A stretch of 63,058 bases of DNA from an uncultured Thiohalophilus sp. (GCA_964575555.1 CAZNRP010000002.1:1-63058); one strand, 5' to 3'; positions 13,951 through 40,923 are shown, counted from the stretch's first letter. Numbers and translations are program-made. Notes: generated from the letters alone by a model not told the origin.

Positions 13951-15684
13951 ATGAGCAAGATCCACAACAAAATGAATAATCATCCCACCGGCTTGTCATT
14001 GCGCCTGCATGACTTCGTGCTCTTTACCATCATGGGCATCCTGGCTGGCTGTGGTTTAATTTATGAATACCTGCTCTCACATTATGCCGGTCGAGTCTTA
14101 GGCGCGGTCGAGCAGGTTATTTTTGCCATGATTGGTATTATGGTTGTGTCGATGGGGCTGGGTGCCTTTGCCGCGCGAGTGTTCAAATCCTATTTTAATG
14201 CCTTTGCCTGGCTGGAAGTCTCGATTGCGTTAATCGGTGCCACTTCGGTATTAGTGTTGGCCGCAACTATGGCCCTGGCCAATTTATTTCCTCAAATTTT
14301 AATGCAAACATTTTCTCTGCCGCCCGATCTCATTCCCCGTGGCGGCATGATTATCTGGGCCAATAATATTGCCTCGGCTATGCCTTATGTAGCCGGTTTT
14401 ATTTTAGGTTTTTTTATCGGCATGGAAATCCCCCTCATCGCCAATATTCGTGAACAAATTTATGGCGAGCATGTTGAACATAATACTGGCTCAATCTATG
14501 GTGTAGATTACATCGGTGCGGGTATCGGTGCCGCTATCTGGGTGATGTTTATGCTGAGCCTGCCGCCGACACAGGCCGCCGTGATCACGGCAACGGCGAA
14601 TCTGCTGGTGGGATTATTATTCTATGTGGTATATCGAAAATATATTCGCTTTGGGGTGTTGGTGGTTTTAGCCCATGTTCTGGTGGGTGTGGTTATCGTG
14701 GTGATCGCCTTATATGGAACCGACTGGGATAACGCCATGGAAGATTTGCTCTATAAAGATAAGGTTATCTTTAGCTATAACTCAAAATACCAGCACATTA
14801 CTGTTACTGAGCGAATTATGGATCCGGCTAAGCCGAAAATTATTTCCCTGTTTATTAATGGTCGTTCACAATTCGCCAGCAATGATGAGCAGATATATCA
14901 TTCCATGCTGGTGGCCCCGGTGATGAATGCCTCAGCCCGCCATGAGAAAATCTTGATCATCGGTGGCGGTGATGGGCTGGCCCTGCGTGAAGTCTTGCGC
15001 TGGCAACCGCAATCCGTCGATCTGGTCGATATCGATCAAACGATTGTTGAATTTTTTACCCTGCCCTATCAAAAAGATGGCCGCATCATTAACCAGCCTT
15101 TACTTGAGTTGAACCAGCATTCCTTCAGCGATCCACGGGTGCATACCCATTTTGGTGATGCTTTTATAAAAGTGGATGAGCTGATTCGAGAGGGGCGACT
15201 GTATGACAGCATCATTGTGGATCTGCCCGATCCCAGTCATCCGGACTTAAACAAACTCTATTCCGCACGATTTTATGCCAAACTCAAAATCCTGTTGACC
15301 GGTGACGGGGCTATGGTGGTGCAATCCACCTCACCCTATCATGCGAAAAATACCTTTTTATCTATTGGCAAAACCGTGCATTACGCCGGTTTTATGCATG
15401 TTGAGCAATATCATCACAATGTCCCCAGTTTTGGCGAATGGGGCTGGACCATTGCCACTAAAAATGGGCTTTCCGCCCGTGCCCGAATCGCTCAGAAAGA
15501 TAAGCTGGAAGTTGATGATAACTGGTCAACTAAGGGCGTTATACTGGCAGCCTTCGAATTTAATCAACATTATTTTGAACATCTTGATGATATACACGTC
15601 AATAGAATCAATAATCAGGCGGCCTATAAATATCATCAGGCTGACTGGGAAAAACAGCAGGGCATTTATTTAATAGAAAAATAG
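13951..15684 (+). CDS. Membrane-anchored spermidine-synthase-like aminopropyltransferase (polytopic N-terminal domain fused to a SpeE fold)
   Basis: About 260 aa of hydrophobic helices, then the SpeE-like motifs YQHITVTE, ILIIGGGDGLALREV, VDLVDID and VDLPDPSHP. Confidence 0.8.
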   Translation: MSKIHNKMNNHPTGLSLRLHDFVLFTIMGILAGCGLIYEYLLSHYAGRVLGAVEQVIFAMIGIMVVSMGLGAFAARVFKSYFNAFAWLEVSIALIGATSVLVLAATMALANLFPQILMQTFSLPPDLIPRGGMIIWANNIASAMPYVAGFILGFFIGMEIPLIANIREQIYGEHVEHNTGSIYGVDYIGAGIGAAIWVMFMLSLPPTQAAVITATANLLVGLLFYVVYRKYIRFGVLVVLAHVLVGVVIVVIALYGTDWDNAMEDLLYKDKVIFSYNSKYQHITVTERIMDPAKPKIISLFINGRSQFASNDEQIYHSMLVAPVMNASARHEKILIIGGGDGLALREVLRWQPQSVDLVDIDQTIVEFFTLPYQKDGRIINQPLLELNQHSFSDPRVHTHFGDAFIKVDELIREGRLYDSIIVDLPDPSHPDLNKLYSARFYAKLKILLTGDGAMVVQSTSPYHAKNTFLSIGKTVHYAGFMHVEQYHHNVPSFGEWGWTIATKNGLSARARIAQKDKLEVDDNWSTKGVILAAFEFNQHYFEHLDDIHVNRINNQAAYKYHQADWEKQQGIYLIEK

Positions 15685-15717
15685 TTGACATAATATGTCG
15701 TGCTGACATATTATGTC
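15685..15717 (+). promoter_or_regulatory. Candidate internal promoter/operator: TTGACA plus a 13-bp inverted repeat
   Basis: ttgaca at 15685-15690. gacataatatgtc (15687-15699), spacer gtgct, gacatattatgtc (15705-15717) are exact reverse complements. An A/T-rich -10-like hexamer lies about 17 nt after TTGACA. The site is 26 nt upstream of the yjfI-like ATG. Confidence 0.35.
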
Positions 15718-15742
15718 CTGGTGCTGGATATTTGGAGGAAAC

Positions 15743-16168
15743 ATGAGTAACGAAAAGCTGGAACAATTAATGACAAATTTGGCGGATAGTCAATTATCCG
15801 ATGGCGCAAACCTTTCCCTGGAAATGTTTGATGGCGAAAATGCCGTGGCCTGTATCACAGTCGAAGATCGGGATGAATTTCCTATTTACATGACGGTTGA
15901 TGAAGGACAGATCCTCTGCATCACTTATTTATTTGGTGATGAACAGGTGGCGCAGGCTAAACGCGCACAGCTGGCAGAAGGTATGTTGTTGATGAATGTT
16001 TCCATTCCGCTATCCGCATTTTCCAAAATTGGCAGTCAGTATATTATGTTTGGAGCCCTGTCTCCGCAATCAAGTACGGACGAACTATTAAACGAAATAG
16101 AGATGTTAAGTGACAATGTGCTTGAAGCCATTGATGCCCTGGCAGACTATTTAACGGAGGCTGCATAA
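15743..16168 (+). CDS. YjfI-like (DUF2170) protein
   Basis: Start moved to ATG 15743 (GGAGGA upstream). About 140 aa, acidic. Family recognised from memory (…QILCITYLF…IPLSAFSKIG..YIMFGALS…). Sits immediately upstream of the pspA-like gene, as in E. coli yjfI-yjfJ. Confidence 0.6.
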   Translation: MSNEKLEQLMTNLADSQLSDGANLSLEMFDGENAVACITVEDRDEFPIYMTVDEGQILCITYLFGDEQVAQAKRAQLAEGMLLMNVSIPLSAFSKIGSQYIMFGALSPQSSTDELLNEIEMLSDNVLEAIDALADYLTEAA

Positions 16169-16171
16169 GCT

Positions 16172-16867
16172 ATGAGTATTTTTAAAAAATTAATTACCGC
16201 CGTACGGGGTGGAGCCACGGAAGTGGGTGAAGCCATCGTCGATACACAGGCGATCCGAATCCTGGAGCAGGAATTGCGAGATGCAAAAAAAGCACTGAAT
16301 GATGCGAAAACCAATCTCACCGCGATTATGGCTGAAAAAATGGCCATTAGCCGCAAAGTGAAGGAATTCACGGATAAGGTTAGCGAGCATGAAGCCTATG
16401 TGATGCAAGCACTGGATAAAGGTGATGAGAGCCTGGCTAGTGATATTGCCGAGAAAATTGCTGAATTCGAATATGAGCAAAATATTCAGCAGGGCATACT
16501 CGATGGCTATGAAACGAAAGTTTCCAGCTTGAAGAAAATGATTCGTCAGACTGAACGAAACATTCAGGCCATGGATCGTGAAATCTCGGTGGTGAAAACC
16601 ACGGAGAAAGTGCAAAAGGCTAACGAGTTGGCGGCGGCTAAATTTTCCGGCTCGAATTCATCCTTGCGTAGTGCCACGGATTCACTAGAGCGAATTAAGG
16701 CGCGTCAGCAAAAACGTGAAGATCAGGCGGCTGCCGCAGTGGAACTTGAATCTGAAGACAAGGGCGATGATTTGCAGGCACGCTTAAAAAATGCAGGTAT
16801 CGTTAATTCTGGCAGCTCGGGCTCATCGGTTCTGGATCGATTAAAGAAACAAAAAGAGAAGTCTTAA
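16172..16867 (+). CDS. PspA/IM30 family protein (YjfJ-like)
   Basis: 231 aa, almost entirely coiled-coil. N-terminus MSIFKKLITAVRGGATEVGEAIVDTQAIRILEQELRDAKKAL is typical of PspA/IM30. Confidence 0.85.
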   Translation: MSIFKKLITAVRGGATEVGEAIVDTQAIRILEQELRDAKKALNDAKTNLTAIMAEKMAISRKVKEFTDKVSEHEAYVMQALDKGDESLASDIAEKIAEFEYEQNIQQGILDGYETKVSSLKKMIRQTERNIQAMDREISVVKTTEKVQKANELAAAKFSGSNSSLRSATDSLERIKARQQKREDQAAAAVELESEDKGDDLQARLKNAGIVNSGSSGSSVLDRLKKQKEKS

Positions 16868-17512
16868 ATGGGTTTGTTTAAATCGGTGTTTGGTGGTGGC
16901 AATTCGCCACCACCCTCGAGTAAAATCGAATCACCCGGAGATCTTAAGCCTGGTGATATGCTGAAAATGGAATTTTCCGATCAGGCTTTGATCTCAGGAC
17001 AAACATTAAAAGTCACCGAGCAGCTATTCTATGATTTAAATGCGGTTGAAAAATGTAAAACGATATCAATTTTACAAGGGGTGGAGCAACGGGTGTTGAT
17101 ATCCACCAGCACGGTTAATCCGGAGCGACCGTTGGAGTTGGCGGTGGCGGTATTACCCGAGACTGTATTTAAGATCTTTAAACGCAAACAATTTGTCGCT
17201 ATTTTTGAGGAGCCTGATAATAACGATCATCGGATTAATCGTAAAAATACAGCGACTGAGCAGGCATCATTGCAGGGCTTTATTGCCGAGTCCTATTTTC
17301 AGGAACGCACCAATGAAGCCTATCGGAGTAATAAAGATTGTCGTCATGAAACCTTGTTAGATTCCGACTGGAGTGCCTTTGATTATAAATTAATGGTTTC
17401 TGATGATCGGCAGCATGCCGTTCGTATTGAAGTCTTCGATGGGGGTCGTACTGATGTCTATTTAATTGCTTATTTAAAATTAAATAAAGTAGAAGAATAT
17501 TGGCCTGCCTAG
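16868..17512 (+). CDS. YjfK-like (DUF2491?) protein
   Basis: Starts directly after the pspA-like stop. Length (214 aa) and position match E. coli yjfK. The family assignment rests on position and memory only. Confidence 0.45.
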   Translation: MGLFKSVFGGGNSPPPSSKIESPGDLKPGDMLKMEFSDQALISGQTLKVTEQLFYDLNAVEKCKTISILQGVEQRVLISTSTVNPERPLELAVAVLPETVFKIFKRKQFVAIFEEPDNNDHRINRKNTATEQASLQGFIAESYFQERTNEAYRSNKDCRHETLLDSDWSAFDYKLMVSDDRQHAVRIEVFDGGRTDVYLIAYLKLNKVEEYWPA

Positions 17513-17513
17513 T

Positions 17514-17834
17514 ATGCCTGTAAAGAAAAAAATCCCCCAGTCCTGGACTAAATCTGACAAAAGTATTCGTGCCGTTCAGGTAATATTTGAGTTAGAGCAA
17601 GCACAATCCCGAGCGTTAAGAATTAAAGCCATTGAAAAAGATTTAAGCCCCTCAGATTATATTCGAGCCATAATTGGCCTGCCACAAAAAAAACCGGTTC
17701 GACCCCGCTTAAGCATTAGCCTGTCTACCGAGGATTACCTGAACCTGGCTAAGCGTTATAAACTAAATGCGGATGATAAAAGTAAAATCCGGGAACGCAT
17801 TAAAAGTGAGCTTATAAAAACCACTGAAAAATGA
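17514..17834 (+). CDS. Putative tandem ribbon-helix-helix DNA-binding protein
   Basis: Two consecutive strand-helix-turn-helix patterns: RAVQVIFELEQAQSRALRIKAIEKDLSPSDYIRAIIG and RLSISLSTEDYLNLAKRYKLNADDKSKIRERIKSELI. Confidence 0.45.
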   Translation: MPVKKKIPQSWTKSDKSIRAVQVIFELEQAQSRALRIKAIEKDLSPSDYIRAIIGLPQKKPVRPRLSISLSTEDYLNLAKRYKLNADDKSKIRERIKSELIKTTEK

Positions 17835-17909
17835 TTCTGATGCTATAGTGCTGGATACCCGTCGGTCAGATTATGTAAGCTTTGATGAAAATAGATAAAG
17901 ACGATTCTT

Positions 17910-19025
17910 ATGCATTTTATATTACGATATCTATCTAGAGGACGCGGCCGACTCAAGCACAATATCGGCAATGATTTAATCCAGTCGATAATAAAGTCGA
18001 GCATACTATTAATTATTCTGTTTGCCCTGCATATTGGATTTATGCTGTATTATGAAAACTTAAGCCTCGGCGATGCAGTCTGGCTTACCTTCACCACCGC
18101 CACCACGGTTGGCTATGGCGACCTCTCGGCCAGTACCACGCAGGGGCGGATTGCAACCATTGTATTATTATATCTTGGTGGTATTTTTATATTGGCCAAG
18201 GTGGTAGGTGATTATTTCAATTATCGACTTGAAGTTCGTGACAAAAAAAACAAGGGTCTATGGAGCTGGGACATGCAGGAACATATTGTTATATTAAATA
18301 CGCCGTCGTTTTCCGGAGAGCGTTATCTACAAAGACTGATTAAACAATTTCGTGCGTCACAGGACTATAAAGATACACCGATATACTTATTGACACGGCA
18401 GTTCCCTAACGGCTTACCTGGATTCATTACAAAACTCGATAAGGTAATGTATTACAATGGCAATCCGGGTAACCCGGAGGATTTAGAAGCAGTTTATGTG
18501 GATAATGCCCGTGATATTATTATTCTGACCAAGGATGAGAATGATGAAAGCTCCGATGGACGAACATTTGATATTCTGCACCGCTTAAAAGACAGAAATA
18601 TCAAGGCTAATATTCTGGTTGAATGTGTTGAAGACATTAATCGCAGGCGACTAGAAGAAGCCGGTGCGGACATTGTGCTGCGCCCGATACGCGCCTACCC
18701 TGAAATGATCGTGCGCGCATTTGATGCGCCGGGATCCGAGCGTATTATAGAAAACATGTTCAATAGCGAGGGTGATGGCTATCACCGCTATGAGGTACAA
18801 ATAAAGGGTATGAACTGGTGTGAGATTGTGAGCCGTTTGATTCGAGATAATGCCGGCATCGCCGTGGCCTATATTGATCTGCACAGCAATGAGATGGTAT
18901 ATAATCCTTCAGCCGAGGCGTGTCCAGATATTCAGGCCTTAATTACCATTAGCAAGGACAACAATATGTACAGTAATGACGATGTGAAAGCGTTGTTAGC
19001 GCAGGATAAAACATGCAAACACTAG
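17910..19025 (+). CDS. Two-TM potassium channel with a C-terminal RCK/TrkA-like domain
   Basis: Selectivity filter TTATTVGYGDLS between two hydrophobic helices. A cytoplasmic Rossmann-like domain follows (HIVILNTPSF...). Confidence 0.85.
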   Translation: MHFILRYLSRGRGRLKHNIGNDLIQSIIKSSILLIILFALHIGFMLYYENLSLGDAVWLTFTTATTVGYGDLSASTTQGRIATIVLLYLGGIFILAKVVGDYFNYRLEVRDKKNKGLWSWDMQEHIVILNTPSFSGERYLQRLIKQFRASQDYKDTPIYLLTRQFPNGLPGFITKLDKVMYYNGNPGNPEDLEAVYVDNARDIIILTKDENDESSDGRTFDILHRLKDRNIKANILVECVEDINRRRLEEAGADIVLRPIRAYPEMIVRAFDAPGSERIIENMFNSEGDGYHRYEVQIKGMNWCEIVSRLIRDNAGIAVAYIDLHSNEMVYNPSAEACPDIQALITISKDNNMYSNDDVKALLAQDKTCKH

Positions 19026-19927
19026 GCTCAAAAAACTTCAGGCATCTAATATGGCTATGGCTATTGAGTGCATTATTATTATCTGCCTGCGGTAATCGCT
19101 TCGAAGATCAGTTACGTGAAACGTCTAAAATAGTTGCCGCCAATTTAGAATATTTAAAAAGTCAGCTGGATGGCAAGCAGTTAACAAATTCATTACTTAT
19201 CATTAAATACGCCAATACGCTGAGTCGGCAAAAACCCGATTATGCAGATATTACCAGTCTAATGGTGAAAGAAGCGACATCCGAGGGTAAGGCATTCACA
19301 GCATTAAGCAAACGTCTGGCCAGTGTGAATCTGGCACCCACCAATAATGAGCAGGCCGCTTCTGGATTACAGGAGTTGCAGTTAATTAATGCGGCGGCCG
19401 ATGTGGTCGAATTTAATAATAGCCTCGCCGATGTGGTCAATACTCTGGCCTCCCTGTCAGACGGCAGCCTGCCATTGGTCAATGTACCCGCATCGCAAAA
19501 AGCGTCAGCGCAACAGGCCAATGCCTTAATTGGTAACCCTGCCTATGGTAATTGGCAACAGAATAGTAGTGGCAATTCCTTCTGGGCCTGGTATGGCATG
19601 TATTCCATGTTCAATAATGTTTTTGGGCGATCATATTATGGTTCATGGTCGGGTCGTCCGCATTATAGTTATTACAATAACTATGGTCGCAGTCGCTGGG
19701 GTTCGAGTTCTGATATCAATCGTAACCATGATTTAAGCCGACGTTACCCCAGCCGCTATAATAAACCCAGCGCCGCATCTAAATCACGTTATGCCTCCAG
19801 TCCCAGTCGTTCATCCAGTTATGGCAGTTCAAAGTCTGGTGGCAGTCAGTCATCGCCTTCACGTTATGGCTCGAGCAGTCGCAGTTCATCCTTCACAAGT
19901 TCTCGTGGCTTTAGCTCAGGTAAATAA
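19013..19927 (+). CDS. Lipoprotein with a Ser/Arg/Tyr-rich low-complexity C-terminus (possibly YjfM/DUF1190-like)
   Basis: Lipobox LLLSAC. The last ~130 aa are SYYNNYGRSRWGSSS...SSYGSSKSGGSQSSPSRYGSSSRSSSFTSSRGFSSGK. Overlaps the channel gene by 13 nt. Confidence 0.6.
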   Translation: MQTLGSKNFRHLIWLWLLSALLLSACGNRFEDQLRETSKIVAANLEYLKSQLDGKQLTNSLLIIKYANTLSRQKPDYADITSLMVKEATSEGKAFTALSKRLASVNLAPTNNEQAASGLQELQLINAAADVVEFNNSLADVVNTLASLSDGSLPLVNVPASQKASAQQANALIGNPAYGNWQQNSSGNSFWAWYGMYSMFNNVFGRSYYGSWSGRPHYSYYNNYGRSRWGSSSDINRNHDLSRRYPSRYNKPSAASKSRYASSPSRSSSYGSSKSGGSQSSPSRYGSSSRSSSFTSSRGFSSGK

Positions 19928-19938
19928 GGACATCTAAA

Positions 19939-20838
19939 ATGCTGACAGATTTTATTAATATCGATGTGGACCTGGGACTTTATTACCTGGTGGATTTTTT
20001 AATTGCACTAATACTGCTGACCGGAATGCGTTTTCTTTCCGGGCTGGTGAGTAATGTCTCGGCCACCCATGAAATTTCAAGTAAAGATAATACCGCTTTT
20101 GGTGTATCCCTGAGCGGAGCCATGATAGCCATCAGCATCATGTTAATCGGCGTTATTTCGGGCGATGCAGGCTATAGCCTTGCCAATGAAGCCTTCACCG
20201 TGATTTTATTTGGCGTCATTGGTATCGTCTTAATGTGGTTGACCCGAATTGCCTTTGACCGGATTTCATTTCCTGCATTATCCATTCAGCAACAAATCAT
20301 GCAAGGCAATATGGCGGCCAGTATCATTGATGCCTGTAATATGATTGCAACCGCGATTATTATCAAAGGTGCCATGTCCTGGGTAGATGGAAACTTGAGC
20401 ATGGCCCTGATTGCGGTGGTGGTGAGCTTTATTGCCGCGCAAATTATCATGGCCCTGGCAACTTTGTATCGGGTAAAAGTCTACGAGAAACGTCATCAGG
20501 GGCTGCGCTTACACTCGGCCATTGAAAATAATAATATCGCCCTGGCACTGCGCTTTAGTGCCTATAGAATTGGTATTGCCATTGCTGTCAGTGCGGCCTT
20601 CACCGCAGTTGAATATGATAGTGATGCCTTTGCCAGTGTTTTCATACTATGGTTTGCGATTGCCCTGCTCCTGTTTGTGCTCCTGACCCTGATCGCCATT
20701 GTCATCCGTTATGGTGTGTTACATCGAGTTAATGTAGGTGAAGAAGTGGGTCAGCAGGCCAACATTGCCGTTGGTGCAATCGAGGGCAGTATTTATATCG
20801 TCGTGGGTTTATTGCTGGCGGGCTTGATCGGTGCGTAA
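19939..20838 (+). CDS. Integral membrane protein with two DUF350 (YjfL-like) repeats
   Basis: 299 aa and polytopic. Two similar halves, each about the size of a single DUF350 unit. Sits in the YjfL position of the yjf cluster. Confidence 0.65.
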   Translation: MLTDFINIDVDLGLYYLVDFLIALILLTGMRFLSGLVSNVSATHEISSKDNTAFGVSLSGAMIAISIMLIGVISGDAGYSLANEAFTVILFGVIGIVLMWLTRIAFDRISFPALSIQQQIMQGNMAASIIDACNMIATAIIIKGAMSWVDGNLSMALIAVVVSFIAAQIIMALATLYRVKVYEKRHQGLRLHSAIENNNIALALRFSAYRIGIAIAVSAAFTAVEYDSDAFASVFILWFAIALLLFVLLTLIAIVIRYGVLHRVNVGEEVGQQANIAVGAIEGSIYIVVGLLLAGLIGA

Positions 20839-20889
20839 ATTAAATCGGCTCACAGATAAACTATTTTCAAATTTGTTTAAATTTCAAAC

Positions 20890-21543
20890 ATGAGCTTAAC
20901 ATCAAGGCAGCGCTTGCTTGTTTTTATAGTCGCTGCTTTTATTATCGATTATCTACCAATTATTAATTTGCCCTTTTTATGGAGCCAGACTTTTTTCCAT
21001 GAAATCAGTCATGGCCTCATGGCGATAATAACGGGTGGCCAAATCCATAAAATCAGCCTGAACTTTAATGGCTCCGGTGTCTGTACCAGTAGCGGCGGTA
21101 TTCGCTTTCTGGTTAGCTTTTCAGGTTATGCAGGCAGCGCCCTCTGGGGGCTTCTGATCTATGCACTAGCCGACAGCCTGTCTAAAACTCGGGCAAAATT
21201 CATCGTCGCAAGCATCGCCATCATGTTAGGTATAACTTTGTTGCTATGGGCGCGTGATCTATCCACGATTATTATTCTGATGGTTTTGTTACTCATGTAC
21301 CTTATTCCTTTGTATAGATCTCTCTGGCTCAGCGTGAAATTTTTCATTCAGCTGGTGGGTGTTTTTGTAATGTTGGATGCCATCCGTAGCCCATTATATT
21401 TACTGGATGGCCGTGATCTGGGTGATGGTGCCAGCCTGGCACAAATAAGTATATTTCCGGAAATTTTCTGGGTGGCATTGTGGTTTGTGATAGCCGTGGG
21501 TTGCGTATATTTGCTGTGGACGCAATCTTTAAATAAAGACTGA
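20890..21543 (+). CDS. M50B-like membrane metalloprotease family protein
   Basis: HEISH (HExxH) lies inside the first hydrophobic helices (FFHEISHGLMAIITGG). 217 aa, polytopic. Confidence 0.6.
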   Translation: MSLTSRQRLLVFIVAAFIIDYLPIINLPFLWSQTFFHEISHGLMAIITGGQIHKISLNFNGSGVCTSSGGIRFLVSFSGYAGSALWGLLIYALADSLSKTRAKFIVASIAIMLGITLLLWARDLSTIIILMVLLLMYLIPLYRSLWLSVKFFIQLVGVFVMLDAIRSPLYLLDGRDLGDGASLAQISIFPEIFWVALWFVIAVGCVYLLWTQSLNKD

Positions 21544-21554
21544 GGTGTTCAATC

Positions 21555-21605
21555 ATAACCTCGTTCTCATGCTCTGTGTGGGAATGCATATGGTGGTGAC
21601 AAGTA
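21555..21605 (+). repeat. REP-like palindromic repeat, copy 2
   Basis: ataacctcgttctcatgctctgtgtgggaatgcatatggtggtgacaagta. Same orientation as 12146-12197 and near-identical to it. Confidence 0.75.
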
Positions 21606-21855
21606 TATAGTTAGGGTGGCATGGGTATATGTCTACCAACCGTTACGAATGTGACTGCCAGGGGGAACACTGCGTGGGCACAAAAACGTGTGCACCCTCT
21701 ACCTCTATTTAGATTTGTTCAAGAGACCGCTCTGTGAAAGGGGTGGGGATACAACAGATGTAAATATTTATGCAACGATTAATACTAACAAGTTGCTGAG
21801 TTTGAGCTAGTATTTATTGATATGTCTGTATAAATGATGAATATGTGGGTTATGG

Positions 21856-23664
21856 ATGCTACGTAAACTATTATTGCCGGTAATTTTTATTATCCTGGTA
21901 TGGGGGTTTTGGCTCAGTCCAGATTTTAAAGTCATAGCTGCCGGGGTCTCGATCTTTTTATTTGGTATGTTGTCTCTTGAAAATGGTTTCAAGGTATTTA
22001 CGGGCGGCACGCTGGAAAAAATTCTCAAATTAAGTACCAATCGTCTCTGGAAAAGTCTGTCATTTGGCATTGTCTCCACCACGATTATGCAATCCAGCTC
22101 TTTAGTCTCGGTAATTACCATCTCATTTCTCAGTGCTGGCCTTTTGGGCTTATATGAAGGCATAGGAATAATTTTTGGATCGAATATTGGCACCACAACC
22201 GGAGCCTGGCTGGTGGCAGGTTTTGGTCTGAAAGTTAAAATCTCAGCCTATGCCATGCCTATGCTGGTGTTTGGTGTGTTACTGGTATTTCAAAAATCAA
22301 AAACTCTAAAAGGTTTTGGATATATTCTTACTGGACTTGGCTTTCTTTTTCTTGGCATTCATTATATGAAAGAGGGTTTTGATGCCTTTAAGGAAAGCTT
22401 TGACCTGGCCCGTTTTGCAATTGCTGGTTATCCGGGAGTGTTTCTTTTTTCTGCTATTGGCATTGCCGCAACGGTAGTGATGCAGTCCAGCCATGCGACA
22501 CTGGTGTTGACGATCACGGCTCTGGCTGCAGGGCAGATAAGTTATGAAAATGGTCTGGCTCTGGCCATTGGTGCTAATGTAGGGACAACGATTACGGCCA
22601 TTATTGGTGCAATGAGTGCCAACGAACAGGGTAAACGGCTGGCCGTTGCACATCTGATTTTTAATCTGGTTACAGGGTTAATTGCCATTGTATTTATATA
22701 TAAAATGATGGTGGCCGTTGATTGGATCAGTGTTGAGCTGGGGATCGCAGCTGATGATTACACGCTCAAACTGGCAGTTTTTCATACCCTGTTTAATTTG
22801 TTGGGGGTATTGGTGATGTTGCCCTTTATTAAACGCCTGGTGAAATTTCTTGAAGGGCTGTTTAAAGTTAAAAAAATCGCACGGACTCAACCACAGTTTT
22901 TGACTGATTCTGCGATTGATTTTCCTGATACGGCAAATGAAGCGGTACGCAATGAAACGCTGAGGATCTGGGGTAATGCTATTGATATTTTCTCCGGAGT
23001 TTTTGGTTTTAAGCGTGCAGACATTTTGGGTGATATCGATCTTGATAAAATTGCAAATGAGCAAAAAAATCTCCAGCCCTATGATATTGATACGGCCTAT
23101 ATGTTAAATATTAAAGTATTGTATAGTGAAATAGTGACCTTTATCAGTCGCGCAGGTTTTTCCTGGGAAATGGAACAGTCAGGTGAAATTCATTGGCTGC
23201 GTAAGGCGAATCAAAATATATCTGATGCAGTAAAAGACACGAAACATCTACAAAAAAATCTGAATATATATCTGAACGGCACTAATTCACAGATGCGTAA
23301 AGCCTATAATCGAATACGGGTCGAGTTGTGCCTGTTGATTCGTGAGCTGGAAAATACTCGTCTGGAGCCGGAAGATGAAAGTACTGTGCTCTCACTGGAA
23401 CATCTAAAGTTATTGCTGGATGAGCACCTGTCAAATGTCCATGCATGGTTGTCTCATACTATTAGGGAAGAGCTGATTAGTGCTGAGATGGCCACTTCGT
23501 TAATGAATGATGTGTCCTATTCGACCAATATATTCAGAAACTTGATTGGCATGGGAGAAACCTTGTTTGTTAAGCGTAGTCATCATTTAACGGAAGTTGA
23601 GCAGGCCGTATTATTAGACGAGGTCGATATTAACGAGATCAAAGCACAGACGCTGAATAATTAA
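21856..23664 (+). CDS. Na/Pi cotransporter family protein with a PhoU-like C-terminal domain
   Basis: 602 aa. Duplicated Na_Pi_cotrans-like segments (IMQSSSLVSVITISF / VMQSSHATLVLTITAL) followed by a helical cytoplasmic tail. Confidence 0.85.
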   Translation: MLRKLLLPVIFIILVWGFWLSPDFKVIAAGVSIFLFGMLSLENGFKVFTGGTLEKILKLSTNRLWKSLSFGIVSTTIMQSSSLVSVITISFLSAGLLGLYEGIGIIFGSNIGTTTGAWLVAGFGLKVKISAYAMPMLVFGVLLVFQKSKTLKGFGYILTGLGFLFLGIHYMKEGFDAFKESFDLARFAIAGYPGVFLFSAIGIAATVVMQSSHATLVLTITALAAGQISYENGLALAIGANVGTTITAIIGAMSANEQGKRLAVAHLIFNLVTGLIAIVFIYKMMVAVDWISVELGIAADDYTLKLAVFHTLFNLLGVLVMLPFIKRLVKFLEGLFKVKKIARTQPQFLTDSAIDFPDTANEAVRNETLRIWGNAIDIFSGVFGFKRADILGDIDLDKIANEQKNLQPYDIDTAYMLNIKVLYSEIVTFISRAGFSWEMEQSGEIHWLRKANQNISDAVKDTKHLQKNLNIYLNGTNSQMRKAYNRIRVELCLLIRELENTRLEPEDESTVLSLEHLKLLLDEHLSNVHAWLSHTIREELISAEMATSLMNDVSYSTNIFRNLIGMGETLFVKRSHHLTEVEQAVLLDEVDINEIKAQTLNN

Positions 23665-35920: not shown

Positions 35921-36060
35921 TTTCACCACAAAGGACGCAGAGAAACTTAAGAAACAATCCGGCAATACTAGGTGGTATTAATTTGCAGGAGCAGTTTTTT
36001 CAGAAAAAACGATGTATAAAACATCAAGCCTGTTTTTCTTTGCGTCCTCTGCGGTGAAAA
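35921..36060. repeat. MITE-like element with 26-bp terminal inverted repeats
   Basis: tttcaccacaaaggacgcagagaaac (35921-35946) matches the reverse complement of 36032-60 (ttttcaccgcagaggacgcaaagaaaaac) at about 23 of 26 positions. An internal palindrome gttttttcagaaaaaac lies near 35994-36010. Located between convergent ubiB and the CapK-like gene. Confidence 0.6.
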
Positions 36061-36099: not shown

Positions 36100-37398
36100 T
36101 TATTCAAACTCACAAATAACAAAGCGGTGCTTACCTGAACGGCTGCGCTCAATTTTATCGACATAATTGATGGCAACTTGCATGTCCTCTCCAAGATCAT
36201 TTTTTATGGTTTCCTTAAGCGTTTTTAATATCGCAGCATCAAGTCGGGTTTTGGCATTAATATTAATATTAAGTTGATTTATCTGAGTCTGTACAAATTG
36301 ATATTGTTTAATTTCAGTCAGCCCATCAAGTAGACGATTAAAATACGACGGCGCAATTTTATTACCATTAGCGGTTTTGATAAAATCATTGCTCCGGCAG
36401 ACTCCCATTTCCATCATCGGAAAAGTTGAGCCACAGGCACATTGGCCGAGCTTGAGTTTACCATTGTCACCATTTTCATAACGAATCATGGGCATCAGAT
36501 AATTGGTGAGTGAAGTGATGATCAACTTATTCTCGCCATTATTATTGATTGATTCAAGGTAAACCATGTCAGTAAAAACATGAATATTACCCTGTGAACA
36601 TTCCACTCCGATATTTGGAATCTCACGGCAACCGTACTGATTGTAGACCTTGCAATTGAATGCCCGTTGCATCAATTCGCGTTGCCAGTCATAAAGGACT
36701 TCAGCGGTTGAGTAAATTCCTTTCAGGCTGCGTGGCATGCTGATTTTATTTTCAAGAATATATGCCGCTACATCTGCAAGAATTGAGGCGTAGCCCTGTA
36801 ATAAAACAGGTTTATAATTTTTTATAAAACACACCCATTGATATAATTCTGCTTCAGCGTATTCCCAGGCCGCAATGGTCTTTTCAGCGGCGGTAAATTC
36901 GCGGTATGTGTTTTTCAGTTTGTGAGCCTTAATATCCTGTTTAGCCCCCCAGAAGTTGAGGATCTTTTCTCCCGGTTGCCAGCCTGACCAGATGTAACTT
37001 CGACTCATGCCGGCGCGCATCAATTCCGTTTTGTAATCGTCATAATAAAATGAAAGTGGATTTCCGGTTGAACCACCGGTGTGGCCAAGGCGAATATTTT
37101 CCCGGTTAACGATATCGGAAACCATATTTTCACGATGCTGAATCAGATCATGCTTGTGGAGTATCGGCAGCTGCGTAATCTCGAAATTGTTTAAATCACC
37201 CGCTGACAAACCGGCATATTTATTTTTATAATAGTCAGTGTGTTCGATTGAAAAACGAATAATCTTATTTAGATCCTGTTTTTGACGACTAAGTAATTCA
37301 GTTCGACTTAAAGATTGCTGCTGTAATAAGGCGGGTAAAATACGATAGCGGGCAGGATGCCTTCTTTTATGTAAGCTGCATCGCAATCGTTTAAACAT
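36100..37398 (-). CDS. CapK/PaaK-like adenylate-forming enzyme (phenylacetate-CoA ligase / F390 synthetase family)
   Basis: 432 aa with the GHTGGSTGNPLSFYYD adenylation P-loop-like motif. The overall architecture is typical of the PaaK/CapK family. Confidence 0.75.
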   Translation of the reverse strand: MFKRLRCSLHKRRHPARYRILPALLQQQSLSRTELLSRQKQDLNKIIRFSIEHTDYYKNKYAGLSAGDLNNFEITQLPILHKHDLIQHRENMVSDIVNRENIRLGHTGGSTGNPLSFYYDDYKTELMRAGMSRSYIWSGWQPGEKILNFWGAKQDIKAHKLKNTYREFTAAEKTIAAWEYAEAELYQWVCFIKNYKPVLLQGYASILADVAAYILENKISMPRSLKGIYSTAEVLYDWQRELMQRAFNCKVYNQYGCREIPNIGVECSQGNIHVFTDMVYLESINNNGENKLIITSLTNYLMPMIRYENGDNGKLKLGQCACGSTFPMMEMGVCRSNDFIKTANGNKIAPSYFNRLLDGLTEIKQYQFVQTQINQLNININAKTRLDAAILKTLKETIKNDLGEDMQVAINYVDKIERSRSGKHRFVICEFE

Positions 37399-37401
37399 GG
37401 G

Positions 37402-39234
37402 CTAGTGGGTACCGGCGGCATGTGCGGCCAGTGTTTGCTCCCATAAAATTTTCTCTGCAGGATAATTAAGAATTGCCTCCACTATCTGATTGAGGCGAGT
37501 TTCTTTTTCTGAGGCTGAATTGATTAAGCGGTATGAGTATGAGTCATCATCGAAGTTAGCATTGATATTGGCAATGAAGGCATCGTACTGCGCTATGGCG
37601 GATTTATATTCAGAGTGTTGGTTCCACCAGGCATCAGGATCTTGCAATAGAGTACTTAATTGATCCCGTTTTTGCAGCAGCAGTTGGTGTTTGTTGATAT
37701 ATTTCTGCTGCATTTTCTTTTCAGTTTGGGTAACAATACTGCTGACAGTCTCATGCTCAAGTTGAGTTTCAGGATAACCCTGCTCGATGAGAACCTCCAT
37801 GCTGAATAACATCACATCCCCGAAATACTGACGTTCAAATTCGCCGGAAAGATCAATCTGCTCTGATTGTTGCATAATGTCCGGTCGATATTCTGATTGA
37901 CCCGTATCGGCAACGGTGCGCTTATGCAACATGGGCAGGTTCGCAGAAAGAAATTTCTGTTTTAATTCTGATTTAATGATTCGCCCCATCACCGGGCCAT
38001 TCATTCTTAATTTAAGCGGTGCAAATGGAATGAAATATTTCAAGCCTTCAAGATTAAAAATATAATTTCCGGGATAGACTGTTCTTGCAGGTGACAGGCT
38101 TTCAAATGCAGGCTGATACTGGTAGTAAGTTTTACGGGTTGGATGTTCGCCGTAGAAAAAACTGTTTAATTTATTTGCGAAATGTTTCAAACTCTCGCCG
38201 TTATCATGTGGCGTAGGCAAACTACAACGGTAGTCACAGGAATTCTGCTTATGCTTAAAGCCAAATAGCTCAGGCATATCATGATAGGCGGCATCATCGG
38301 CAAGCTGAATCTTGGTCGCGTGAAAACCACAGGCTAGATTATTATCAAGCTCAACTATTTTGCTGAGAAAACTGATAATATCCTGCAAAAAATTGACCAC
38401 CATCACTGCAGGTGAGACAGGTGGATCACCGACTACTTTTCCGGTGATGATAGTGGCATCTGTCTGGCTGAATATTTGATCCAGATAATAGAAATAATTA
38501 ACCGTATAAAGATCGCGATCGCCGTTTCGGGTATTCAGCTTAACCTTAAATTCCTGATCACTGTCCAGTGAATAGAATAATACCTTTTTATATTGTTGTT
38601 GTAACTCATTCAGTTTCAGACTGATGATGTTACGCATTTTCGGTGAACCCTTGTGATAAAAATTTAGTGCATCGCTGTGGCCGACTACACCCGTAAGTTT
38701 TTCTTTTTGTTCTTCGCTTAGGTTTCGTAACTGTTGACGTTGCTGCTGTTGGCCAAAATAGAGGCAGGGCAAACCCCGTTGATTGAATTTCTCAACGAGT
38801 TTTTTGTGCTGAGTAATGCTATTCTCATTTTTACTATCATCGGCAACCATGACACTTACTTTTTTAAAATATTGCCCCTGTTTTCCGCCATAATTAAATA
38901 ACTTGCAGAGCTGAAAAATACTGTTGAGACAATCATCGAGTTGACGGGGCCGGTCTGCTACAGGAATAAATAATAAAAAGTGGTGTCGGTCATCCTGTTT
39001 CTTATTTGTAATCAGTGCTTCTAACTCACGGAAGATCTGTTGATAACTCCTGAGTGAAATTTCATTGGGTTCGTCCAACCAAAGTGCTTTTTCAGCTAAA
39101 GAGATTGTGTTTTTATAAATTGAAATCAGATCATGCTCGGAGGCATTATCCAGTTGGACGGCTAGTTTATGGGCGGCGCTATCGTTGCTAGTGCTAAGAA
39201 AGTTGTAGAGTGCGGTTTCACTTGCTGCAGCCAT
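37402..39234 (-). CDS. Orphan 610-aa protein with GT-A (nucleotide-diphospho-sugar transferase)-like motifs
   Basis: FLLFIPVADRPRQLDDCLNSI, VMVADDSKN and LDSDQEF resemble the GT2/GT-A N-terminal strand, the DD motif and DxD. The C-terminal ~250 aa is helical and unassignable. Sits 3 nt from the CapK-like gene and 15 nt from the TPP enzyme gene. Confidence 0.4.
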   Translation of the reverse strand: MAAASETALYNFLSTSNDSAAHKLAVQLDNASEHDLISIYKNTISLAEKALWLDEPNEISLRSYQQIFRELEALITNKKQDDRHHFLLFIPVADRPRQLDDCLNSIFQLCKLFNYGGKQGQYFKKVSVMVADDSKNENSITQHKKLVEKFNQRGLPCLYFGQQQQRQQLRNLSEEQKEKLTGVVGHSDALNFYHKGSPKMRNIISLKLNELQQQYKKVLFYSLDSDQEFKVKLNTRNGDRDLYTVNYFYYLDQIFSQTDATIITGKVVGDPPVSPAVMVVNFLQDIISFLSKIVELDNNLACGFHATKIQLADDAAYHDMPELFGFKHKQNSCDYRCSLPTPHDNGESLKHFANKLNSFFYGEHPTRKTYYQYQPAFESLSPARTVYPGNYIFNLEGLKYFIPFAPLKLRMNGPVMGRIIKSELKQKFLSANLPMLHKRTVADTGQSEYRPDIMQQSEQIDLSGEFERQYFGDVMLFSMEVLIEQGYPETQLEHETVSSIVTQTEKKMQQKYINKHQLLLQKRDQLSTLLQDPDAWWNQHSEYKSAIAQYDAFIANINANFDDDSYSYRLINSASEKETRLNQIVEAILNYPAEKILWEQTLAAHAAGTH

Positions 39235-39249
39235 GATCTGAGTGGGAAA

Positions 39250-40923
39250 TTATCGTTTGCTGATGTAATTAGGAAAGGTGTCTTTATCGATCATAATTTC
39301 AATCAGATTGATGTCATTGTGGAAATCCGTATTGGCGAAGACGCTATCGAGATCAGAGATTTCAGTGATCCTGCTGTAATTAATCGAAAAGGATGCTGCC
39401 AGCGTGGCATAATCGGGGTTAATGAAATCGCAGTTGATGTAACGATCCTGATACTGTTGTGACTGGTTTTTTCGAATTAAGCCCATGGTAGAATTATTAA
39501 ATAGAATAATGTTTAAGGGCAGTTTGTAATTTACCGCCGTCATAATTTCCATGCAGCACATTTGAAAACCGCCATCACCGAGTATGGCAAAGCTGGGTTT
39601 GTGCTCGATAAAGCGTGCGCCGATGGCGGCTGGAATGGATTGGCCTAGTGAGGAGATGCCAGAGTTAGGGTAATAGCGGTTGTGGCTGGAGACATTAAAA
39701 AAATTCTGCGCAAAAATAATATTATCGTCGAAGACCTGAATATTTTCTGGAAAGTCTTTTTCCAGTCGGGAGAAAAAGGCTTCTATTAAGGGGAAGCGGG
39801 ATTGGAACTCGCCTGCATTACGTTCGTTTTGATCTGTTTGTGCGAGGGTTTTCAGGTTTGAAACTAAATTGGAAGATTCTTTTATCGACTCCCCTCGTTC
39901 ACGTATAAGATTTAGCAAATCTAACAATACATCTTTGATGTCTGCATAAATTGCCACATCGGCTTTAAATACTTTTTCCAGTTGTTCCTCATCAATGTCC
40001 ACCTGGACGATGCGCTTGTTCTGCATCAGCTCTTTGTCCCAGAGGTAGCTGGTGCGTTCGTTGAAGCCGGTGCCGAGAAAGATTAGTAGATCGGCTTTTT
40101 CTCGAATGTACTGATAGGCACTGCTGTATGAGGTGACTCCGAGGCTGCCGAGTGAATAGGTCGAGTCTTCACTGATGATACCCTTGCCTTTGAGGCTGGT
40201 GGTCACCGGGATATGCATTAATTCGCTGAGTTCGGCAACGGCATTTTGTGCCTCGGCGCGAATGCAGCCATAGCCGGCAATAATGACGGGATGTTTTGCA
40301 TCTTGCAGATGCTCAAGCATTTGCGTGAGTTGTTGTGATTTAGCCGTTACCGTACTGACTCTTCGTTCAGCTTTAATTTGATCAAGAACCTCATCATTAA
40401 CTATTTCTTTTTGCACATTGAATGGAAAGCTCAGCAGTACGGGCCCGGAATTGGCCGACAATAAAATATTGCTGGTTCGGTTAAGCACATTAGCCAGATA
40501 ATCGGTGCGCTCAACTATTTTGTTATACTTTGTGATGCCTTTAAATAAAGCGTCCTGATCGATACTGCCACCTTCGCCTGAACTTTCCTGCAGCCCGCCT
40601 TTGCCAAAAATATGGGTGGAGGTTTCACCGGTGATCACCAGTAGCGGTTGCTTGTCCGCGTAGGCATTGGCAATGCCGGTAACCAGATTAGTCGCTCCTG
40701 GTCCTGCGGTGGTAATACAGGCCCCGATTTTTCCCGAGGCACGAGCATAGCCCCCGGCCATGAAGGAGGCACCCTGTTCATGCTTGGCTAAAATGGCTTT
40801 GATGTTTGAATCATACAGACTGTCATAGACGGGCAGAATGTGCGCGCCCGGCATACCGAAGATGTATTCGATGCCCAGACGTTCCATATATTTTACGATT
40901 AATTCACTGACTTGTATTTGCAT
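39250..40923 (-). CDS. Thiamine-diphosphate-dependent enzyme, acetolactate synthase large-subunit-like
   Basis: N-terminal PYR domain (GMPGAHILPVYD, catalytic-Glu context KHEQGASFMAGGYA, TTAGPGATNLVTG) and a C-terminal TPP motif (GDGGFQM...NNS). Confidence 0.85.
   Translation of the reverse strand: MQIQVSELIVKYMERLGIEYIFGMPGAHILPVYDSLYDSNIKAILAKHEQGASFMAGGYARASGKIGACITTAGPGATNLVTGIANAYADKQPLLVITGETSTHIFGKGGLQESSGEGGSIDQDALFKGITKYNKIVERTDYLANVLNRTSNILLSANSGPVLLSFPFNVQKEIVNDEVLDQIKAERRVSTVTAKSQQLTQMLEHLQDAKHPVIIAGYGCIRAEAQNAVAELSELMHIPVTTSLKGKGIISEDSTYSLGSLGVTSYSSAYQYIREKADLLIFLGTGFNERTSYLWDKELMQNKRIVQVDIDEEQLEKVFKADVAIYADIKDVLLDLLNLIRERGESIKESSNLVSNLKTLAQTDQNERNAGEFQSRFPLIEAFFSRLEKDFPENIQVFDDNIIFAQNFFNVSSHNRYYPNSGISSLGQSIPAAIGARFIEHKPSFAILGDGGFQMCCMEIMTAVNYKLPLNIILFNNSTMGLIRKNQSQQYQDRYINCDFINPDYATLAASFSINYSRITEISDLDSVFANTDFHNDINLIEIMIDKDTFPNYISKR

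Follow-up and report, generated by a model that had tools for sequence, protein, structure and literature searches.

The window analysed here is a 63,058-nt stretch of DNA from an uncultured Thiohalophilus sp. (GCA_964575555.1 CAZNRP010000002.1:1-63058), and our subject is a cassette of three genes on its minus strand, at positions 36100-40923. The first gene (39250-40923) encodes a 557-amino-acid (aa) enzyme of the thiamine diphosphate (ThDP; also thiamine pyrophosphate, TPP) type, the second (37402-39234) a 610-aa protein of an unnamed family, and the third (36100-37398) a 432-aa CapK/PaaK-like adenylating enzyme. The first two genes belong to a conserved pair, and the third varies between lineages. 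A spacer of 15 nt (39235-39249, minus strand), an operon-like coupling, lies between the ThDP enzyme gene and the 610-aa protein gene, and a gap of 3 nt between the latter and the CapK-like gene. An earlier description made from the sequence alone (hereafter, the sequence-only reading) had reported three minus-strand genes with these gaps, and the open reading frames lie exactly there.

In the window, the gene order is gpmI-envC-ctpA-yibQ-DJ-1, then the cassette, then ubiB-hemY-hemX. Pfam domains agree with the earlier naming of the flanking genes on both sides, with iPGM, Peptidase_M23, Peptidase_S41, Polysacc_deac_2 and DJ-1/PfpI on one flank and, on the opposite one, ABC1/UbiB and HemY. The cassette points the same way as envC-ctpA-yibQ-DJ-1, the housekeeping genes upstream of it; promoter and terminator scans of the cassette stayed at background level, with no clear promoter or terminator separating it from these genes. 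An Rfam scan in and near the cassette for riboswitches or known RNAs returned a single match, a snoRNA at chance level. A hairpin element of 139 bp (35921-36059), to which no strand is assigned, lies between the convergent stops of ubiB and the CapK-like gene.

The association of the first two genes extends far beyond the window. In a sample of 83 non-redundant loci, 74 have room upstream of the 610-aa protein gene, and in 73 of these 74 a ThDP enzyme gene lies directly upstream of it on the same strand. The extrapolated gap between the two has a median of 15 nt across loci, and at some loci the genes overlap. The sole roomy locus that has no ThDP enzyme gene within 8 kb of the 610-aa protein gene is that of Candidatus Venteria ishoeyi (L031, 8001-9692). 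The pair is found in more than ten unrelated genomic contexts, with surroundings that vary by lineage, and across the 83 loci no export, membrane or envelope genes are conserved near it. For the 610-aa protein itself, the protein collection contains at least 2,195 homologues. Of roughly 186,000 species genomes, 492 carry a relative, and a set of 1.84 billion proteins yields only 374 representative clusters of the family, whose boundary is sharp. The source names found are all 'hypothetical protein', except for one generic Joint Genome Institute (JGI) label. At the best 80 loci, all carriers are Gamma- and Betaproteobacteria that oxidise sulfur or iron. They include Sedimenticola, Thiodiazotropha, Thiolapillus and Thiohalomonadaceae, as well as Sulfuricella, Thiobacillus, Hydrogenophilales and Gallionellaceae; many are animal symbionts, such as those of Lamellibrachia, Escarpia and Solemya.

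The gene that follows the pair is far less constant. At 66 loci with room downstream, the third gene is CapK-like in 19 (the window included) and encodes a 178-aa protein with a predicted sulfotransferase fold in 37; no locus (0/66) has both. The remaining 10 of the 66 have neither: unrelated housekeeping genes directly follow, and the pair alone suffices. The type of third gene tracks the clades of a neighbour-joining (NJ) tree of the 610-aa protein. Because the third gene is variable and its type follows these clades, we conclude that the pair is the conserved unit and that the third gene is an exchangeable accessory. The sequence-only reading had treated all three genes as one functional unit; this stands for the first two, which are adjacent almost everywhere, but not for the trio as such, given how few loci have a CapK-like gene. 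In the 610-aa tree the outgroup consists of two loci, L083 and L077, with neither a CapK-like nor a small sulfotransferase gene. They have in common a gene for a 231-246-aa protein (cluster c109; 12130-12870 in L083) on the minus strand downstream of the pair, and its N-terminus, LLSHMRAFTSL, may be another P-loop or sulfotransferase-like motif.

The product of the first gene contains all three domains of its superfamily (TPP_enzyme_N, TPP_enzyme_M and TPP_enzyme_C; Pfam, E 1e-30 to 1e-40), in keeping with its earlier description as an enzyme resembling acetolactate synthase (ALS). Its best NCBIfam match, TIGR00118, scores 381.7 bits, under the cutoff of 538.35 for that model, and all 25 of the NCBIfam models listed for the protein fall below their own cutoffs. 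The closest solved relative is BbmA of Brevibacillus (8x3x), with 294 bits and an end-to-end alignment; true ALS or acetohydroxyacid synthase (AHAS) structures reach at most 235 bits, and 2-hydroxyacyl-CoA lyase (HACL) and oxalyl-CoA decarboxylase only about 120 bits. The protein keeps the catalytic glutamate (E49, in KHEQGA) and, at 449-481, the GDGG...NN motif for ThDP; an RFDDR motif was not found in it. Next to the gene we found no ilvN/ilvH small-subunit gene and no ilv operon, its neighbours being the DJ-1/PfpI gene and the 610-aa protein gene. Judged from these sequence comparisons, the enzyme is probably a 2-oxo-acid decarboxylase or carboligase of the ALS-like superfamily, and not a housekeeping AHAS.

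Searches with the 610-aa protein against Pfam and NCBIfam gave no match at E<=0.1, and PADLOC gave none either. Against sequences in the PDB there was nothing at E<=10, profile search included, and an exhaustive profile search with the family found no bridge to any named family. An AlphaFold2 model built from a 35-sequence alignment has a mean predicted local distance difference test (pLDDT) score of 87.9 and a predicted template modelling (pTM) score of 0.89. In a Foldseek search, the top PDB matches of this model, and its only significant ones, are all enzymes of the GT-A glycosyltransferase fold (probability 1.0, E 1e-4 to 1e-3), among them hyaluronan synthase, MGAT2, Ktr4, TarP, XXYLT1, SpsA and MpgS, at 8-16% identity. 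The matched region is the core only, roughly residues 85-295; it is preceded by an N-terminal helical region, and after it come an insertion that is likewise conserved in the family (about 296-460) and, at the C-terminus, a helical domain (about 463-607). The predicted structure supports the presence of a GT-A-like core in the protein. Three motifs are invariant in the 35 sequences of the family, PVADRP at 91-96, DD at 132-133 and DSD at 224-226; the last of these (D224-S-D226) is DXD-like by sequence, D132-D133 being invariant as well, and together they would fit a GT2-like nucleotide-sugar site. Hydrophobic, membrane-spanning segments are missing from all three cassette proteins, and in the 610-aa protein the maximum 19-residue hydropathy is 1.64, with no transmembrane segment predicted. 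Of the earlier label 'GT-A-like orphan', then, the first half is upheld by the predicted core, but the second is not, the protein having a large family of homologues.

A distant branch of the 610-aa family is found in a different type of cluster (L086, 131-8242; protein P0374, 564 aa, 150 bits to the family profile). There, a GT1 gene, the gene for the 610-aa-like protein, a haem-oxygenase/TENA-like gene, a gene with no assigned function, two radical SAM/SPASM genes and an NDP-sugar epimerase gene lie together, in what looks like a sugar-containing natural-product cluster lacking a ThDP enzyme.

The 432-aa product of the third gene gave only remote matches. In NCBIfam it matches the DVU_1553-family AMP-dependent ligase model (99 bits against a cutoff of 300), as well as PaaK and F390-synthetase-related models, with E values from 2e-28 to 2e-8, all far under the equivalog cutoffs. 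Its closest solved relatives are the phenylacetate-CoA ligases 9s3l (86 bits) and 4r1l (73 bits). The protein of the window itself has no Pfam match; PF27533 (CapK_C) is recorded, in precomputed annotation, on its 89%-identical orthologue from a hydrothermal-vent metagenome (L001). The core motifs of ANL adenylating enzymes are a P-loop resembling T/SGGTTG, YxxGD and a C-terminal catalytic lysine, and the protein has HTGGSTGNP at 107, YENGD at 307 and SGK at 421. These likenesses point weakly to a remote adenylating enzyme of the ANL superfamily, of PaaK, F390-synthetase or CapK type; the earlier CapK/PaaK-like call thus draws some, if weak, support from NCBIfam and PDB similarity and from the motifs.

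The alternative third gene encodes a small protein for which searches of Pfam, NCBIfam and PDB sequences gave no match. Its model (pLDDT 90.4) has a sulfotransferase fold, with Foldseek matches to SULT7A1, CurM-ST, TPST, Cpz8 and SgdX2 at template modelling (TM) scores of 0.55-0.63, the top ones bound to 3'-phosphoadenosine 5'-phosphate (PAP). Among these top matches are the small proteins Cpz8 and SgdX2, both bacterial, and the sulfotransferase (ST) domain of CurM. The UniRef name of the protein begins with 'Sulphotransferase'. Beyond its gene there is often a convergent gene, which in two loci carries Methyltransf_24 in precomputed Pfam annotation.

As a family, the small sulfotransferases are worth recording in their own right. 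They are unusually small (176-198 aa), carry a loop of the form NxGRCGSTT at the N-terminus together with an HLxR(D/N)...S motif, have at least 2,431 homologues and always stand directly after the pair; an example is at 11839-12375 of L003, with 36 further loci and none in the window. In the gill symbiont of Solemya pervernicosa (L003/L004, about 400-21000), the module of ThDP enzyme, 610-aa protein and sulfotransferase lies between heterodisulfide-reductase-like genes and aprBA, which encodes adenosine 5'-phosphosulfate (APS) reductase, with a gene for a TauD-family dioxygenase just upstream of the module. Such a sulfur-metabolism neighbourhood was seen only in this symbiont lineage.

The hairpin beside the CapK-like gene had been described as a MITE-like element, that is, as resembling a miniature inverted-repeat transposable element. 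The inverted repeat is real. Its arms are 25 nt long (35921-35945 and 36035-36059) with 3 mismatches, where 0 such repeats would be expected in the window by chance, and the folding energy is -59.7 kcal/mol (z = -4.6). Each arm consists of TTTCACC and tandem 9-mers, of which the arms of such elements have two to four (GCAGAGGAC / ACAGAGGAC / GCAAAGGAC). The hairpin is single-copy in the 63 kb window, and no Rfam model matches it. At the orthologous site of L001 (13184-13324), each arm is longer by one 9-nt unit and the pairing is preserved. At least 120 metagenome contigs, with soil, sediment, freshwater and gut as their sources, contain the arm sequence, where by our own estimate chance would give about 1. 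In half of 80 such contigs (L087-L166) an inverted partner lies 72-198 nt away, with unrelated loops, and fifteen contigs have more than two arms. We considered and rejected a classical MITE: terminal inverted repeats are present, but the element is single-copy in the window, its loops are unrelated between copies and no target-site duplication is evident on reading its flanks. The hairpin is a member of a widespread class of inverted repeats of which only the arms are common to the copies, and not a MITE with a conserved interior. Candidate roles are a terminator, a protein-binding site or a mobile hairpin, and it is probably not part of the pathway considered below.

The cassette had been described as AT-rich from hand counts of G+C in single 60-nt lines, all six of which are exact (17, 18, 19, 26, 35 and 34). 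Its G+C content is 42.4%, against 47.5% for the window; windows of equal size have a standard deviation (SD) of 2.9 points, and 4.3% of these reach so low a value. The deficit lies partly in amino-acid composition and partly in the third positions of two of the three genes. At first codon positions, G+C (GC1) is 0.47-0.51 in the cassette genes against 0.58-0.64 in the flanking genes. At third positions (GC3) it is 0.395 in the CapK-like gene and 0.416 in the 610-aa protein gene, and 0.502, the level of the flanks, in the ThDP enzyme gene. The 5' end of the ThDP enzyme gene is indeed richer in G+C, as had been noted, with 51% over the first 100 codons, but codons 200-300 are richer likewise. 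A second, equally low spot, at about 20.8-25.6 kb, holds membrane and regulatory genes.

The other low-G+C part of the window, at 13951-23664, is where the dinucleotide signature deviates most (delta* reaches 82, the mean being 41), and its composition is more unusual than that of the three-gene cassette. Its products are a 577-aa protein whose C-terminal part is a spermidine-synthase domain, a DUF2170 protein, PspA/IM30, a K+ channel with an RCK domain, a DUF350 protein, an M50B-like peptidase and a Na/Pi cotransporter, and it resembles a membrane-stress or polyamine cluster.

Building on the linkage and distribution of the pair, the alternation of the third gene, and the folds and catalytic motifs described above, we propose that the cassette is one version of a biosynthetic core of two genes, so far undescribed, to which an exchangeable gene for a tailoring step is joined. 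The ThDP enzyme would decarboxylate one or two common 2-oxo acids and then release the activated aldehyde or ligate it, giving an alpha-hydroxy-carbonyl compound of acyloin or hydroxy-acid type. The soluble GT-A-fold 610-aa protein would then move a sugar, or another nucleotide-linked group, from a common activated donor to that compound. In the lineage of the window, the CapK/PaaK-like enzyme would adenylate a carboxylate of the product, from which an amide, ester or thioester would form. Most of the other lineages would instead sulfate the product with the small sulfotransferase, using 3'-phosphoadenosine 5'-phosphosulfate (PAPS), and possibly methylate it, a convergent methyltransferase gene often being near; in some lineages, such as tubeworm symbionts, there would be no third step. 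The product would be a small molecule of the cytoplasm, perhaps a solute or signal, and typical of chemolithoautotrophs that oxidise sulfur and iron. What we infer here are the substrates, the sequence of the steps and the nature of the product. Since the pair can stand alone among housekeeping genes, its proteins are soluble and no export or envelope genes are conserved near it, substrates that are common metabolites and a cytoplasmic product seem most likely.

We put the scheme as a whole forward tentatively, at slightly under an even chance. The sequence-only reading had envisaged a compact pathway for a metabolite derived from an acyloin or keto acid, or for a glycoconjugate; a carboligase and a GT-A transferase remain the best reading of the constant part, but the CapK-like gene, being inconstant, does not belong to the core. 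The gene neighbourhood of the distant 610-aa branch, between GT1 and NDP-sugar-epimerase genes, supports the glycosyltransferase reading. There is also precedent for a ThDP carboligase beside a glycosyltransferase, in yerE and in mmar_2332/2333 (PMC9306805). The earlier statement that no characterised pathway could be recognised agrees with our literature search, which turned up none that matches the gene set. In the literature searched we likewise found no described cluster of a ThDP enzyme, a sulfotransferase and a glycosyltransferase, although one may be described elsewhere.

Several points weigh against this proposal. A function for BbmA was not found in the literature searched, one review of ThDP enzymes making no mention of it. 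The GT-A call rests on a predicted structure and remote matches, with TM scores of 0.17-0.29 over the whole protein, and neither the roughly 300 conserved residues outside the core nor two helical domains have a counterpart in the matches. The GT-A fold also houses nucleotidyltransferases, so the group transferred may not be a sugar. The clades that the third-gene type follows are weakly resolved at depth in the NJ tree. Adenylating enzymes and sulfotransferases act on different functional groups, so that to regard the two as equivalent tailoring steps is only an analogy.

Several other explanations were weighed against the proposed core, and one of them concerns the origin of the cassette: a recently acquired AT-rich island, carrying a strain-specific secondary-metabolite pathway and delivered with a MITE-like element. 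The low G+C, about 5 points under the window mean and in the lowest 4% of same-size windows, is what such an island would predict, and so is the divergence of its proteins, which are 84-94% identical to those of L001 where the flanks are 94-99% identical. However, the AT-richness is accounted for by this faster divergence together with a composition rich in N, K, I and Y. The cassette lies at the same junction, in the same gene arrangement, in the hydrothermal-vent metagenome (L001; 610-aa protein 84% identical), a gammaproteobacterial metagenome-assembled genome (MAG; L006; 61%) and a Thiohalophilus MAG (L007; 60%), and a context shared down to 60% identity contradicts recent acquisition. In these three loci the cassette is 4-7 G+C points under its own flanks, and its G+C follows the host, with 49-50% in a locus of 53% and 53-58% in loci of 58-60%. 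The dinucleotide distance of the cassette (delta* 27.8 against a mean of 41.1) makes it more typical than 82% of same-size windows, and the codon-usage distances of its genes rank 26, 33 and 40 among the 44 genes of the window. The window contains no tRNA gene, and the cassette, which sits between housekeeping genes, is not flanked by direct repeats. The hairpin is absent at the L006 and L007 sites, where the cassette is already in place; it therefore arrived after the cassette and does not mark its arrival. The occurrence of the pair in two proteobacterial classes, Gamma- and Betaproteobacteria, and in many contexts does imply transfers or rearrangements, but old ones, at some time in the deep past. 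Thus, of the earlier claims about origin, the low G+C stands, but in dinucleotide signature and codon usage the cassette is like the rest of the window, and horizontal acquisition, at least in recent times, is contradicted by the shared junction, the host-tracking G+C and the native signature. A recent island is largely refuted by the same evidence, and we regard it as very improbable. We conclude that the cassette is a long-standing resident of its lineage.

The other explanations concern function. In Mycobacterium marinum (M. marinum), the ThDP carboligase gene mmar_2332 adjoins the glycosyltransferase gene mmar_2333, and YerE is an ALS-like ThDP enzyme that acts on CDP-4-keto-3,6-dideoxyglucose (PMC9306805). 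By analogy with this precedent, the ThDP enzyme of the cassette could add an acyl branch of C2 or longer to an NDP-4-keto-deoxyhexose, which the 610-aa protein would transfer to an envelope glycan and the third gene product would decorate. The GT-A fold of the 610-aa protein and the GT1 and NDP-sugar-epimerase genes around its distant branch are in favour of this. CapK-type and sulfotransferase genes, moreover, are common in polysaccharide loci. Such a route is nonetheless improbable, in that NDP-ketosugar genes, a YerF-type reductase, a flippase, a polymerase and other membrane genes are missing from the window, none of them is conserved across the 83 loci, the 610-aa protein lacks a membrane segment, and the pair stands by itself among housekeeping genes at 10 loci. 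Somewhat more improbable still is a catabolic or salvage function, in which the PaaK-like enzyme would make the acyl-CoA of a hydroxy or aromatic acid, the ThDP enzyme would cleave or decarboxylate it in the manner of 2-hydroxyacyl-CoA lyase, and the 610-aa protein would be an accessory. The solved relatives of the CapK-like protein are CoA ligases, including PaaK and a 2-hydroxyisobutyryl-CoA synthetase (6hdw), and ThDP-dependent 2-hydroxyacyl-CoA lyases are among the PDB matches of the ThDP enzyme, but well below BbmA and ALS in score. The ligase is missing from 47 of the 66 loci, and it is this dispensability that makes the route unlikely; a sulfotransferase-fold replacement would have no place in it, and the constant partner of the ThDP enzyme is the GT-A-fold protein and not the ligase. 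We give least credence of all, and very little, to the idea that the ThDP enzyme is a spare acetolactate synthase and that its two neighbours, unrelated to it, are there by chance or for reasons of regulation. The genes are co-directional with envC-ctpA-yibQ-DJ-1 with no clear promoter or terminator between, as that idea would allow; against it are an adjacency that holds at all but one of 74 loci, in many contexts and two proteobacterial classes, with tiny spacers or overlaps, and an enzyme that falls under every ALS equivalog cutoff and has no small-subunit partner. A defence function was also considered and was rejected, PADLOC having given no match.

The enzyme superfamilies concerned are known; apparently undescribed are the family of the 610-aa protein, the obligatory pairing of this protein with a ThDP enzyme, and the exchange between an adenylating enzyme and a sulfotransferase. 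The pair is among the few strictly linked and wholly unnamed modules that sulfur and iron oxidisers have in common, whether free-living or symbiotic. Should it make a metabolite of its own, the compound could serve in chemosynthetic ecosystems as a physiological marker, as a compatible solute or as a signal between host and symbiont. In a more ambitious version of the proposal, the metabolite would belong to a new class, a glycosylated or otherwise nucleotide-donor-modified acyloin or hydroxy acid, and the 610-aa protein would represent a new GT-A family with a new acceptor-binding architecture; this we think rather unlikely. We are equally doubtful, while not dismissive, of its extension, in which the lineages would make sulfated and methylated, or else adenylate-derived, forms that are a signature of sulfur- and iron-oxidising chemolithoautotrophs, among them the tubeworm, Solemya and lucinid clam symbionts. 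With the 610-aa protein the GT-A transferases would gain a new family, and the natural exchange of adenylating enzyme and sulfotransferase at one operon position offers a ready comparative system. The pair is, in our view, a solid and testable lead on a metabolite of chemosynthetic bacteria, and not one that is mechanistically surprising.

Among known systems, the clusters of YerE and of MMAR_2332-MMAR_2333 are alike in arrangement, an ALS-like ThDP gene standing directly beside a gene of glycosyltransferase type, as here, although here the likeness of the partner is at the level of fold only. The chemistry of these systems joins an activated aldehyde to a carbonyl and is followed by sugar transfer (PMC9306805). 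They differ in containing genes for CDP- or NDP-ketosugars, a YerF reductase, an aldolase and genes of envelope assembly, none of which is found in the window or is conserved across the 83 loci, and the partner here is a 610-aa family that has no Pfam match. BbmA, one of a group of stand-alone ALS-like carboligases, has the same three domains and cofactor motifs as the ThDP enzyme, but is only about 38% identical to it, as judged by eye from the alignment, and in a close relative the BbmA-type gene adjoins a gene resembling ketoacyl synthase III (KAS III), with no GT-A partner. An ALS-like homologue in Thermosporothrix hazakensis is 30% identical to the ThDP enzyme and is presumably the enzyme of that organism that makes sattabacin-type acyloins. 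IlvB, IlvI and IlvG have superfamily, domain order, catalytic glutamate and ThDP-binding motif in common with the enzyme; they differ in that it scores below the cutoff of 538, has no adjoining small subunit and no RFDDR motif, and has as the constant neighbour of its gene one that encodes a GT-A-fold protein. The 432-aa protein has weak and consistent sequence similarity, as well as adenylation motifs, in common with the CapK, PaaK and F390-synthetase branch, but it lies below the curated cutoffs and is elsewhere swapped for a protein of sulfotransferase fold; on CapK biochemistry itself, only work on the Staphylococcus aureus (S. aureus) capsule turned up in the literature. With GT-A enzymes, both GT2-like ones (SpsA, TarP and hyaluronan synthase) and solute synthases of MpgS type, the 610-aa protein has in common its predicted Rossmann-like core, and its PVADRP (N-terminal), DDS and DXD-like DSD motifs may be a further likeness. 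It differs from the established glycosyltransferase families in having no match at the level of sequence in Pfam, NCBIfam or the PDB, and from a minimal GT-A enzyme in that it is twice as large, soluble, and part of a sharply bounded family.

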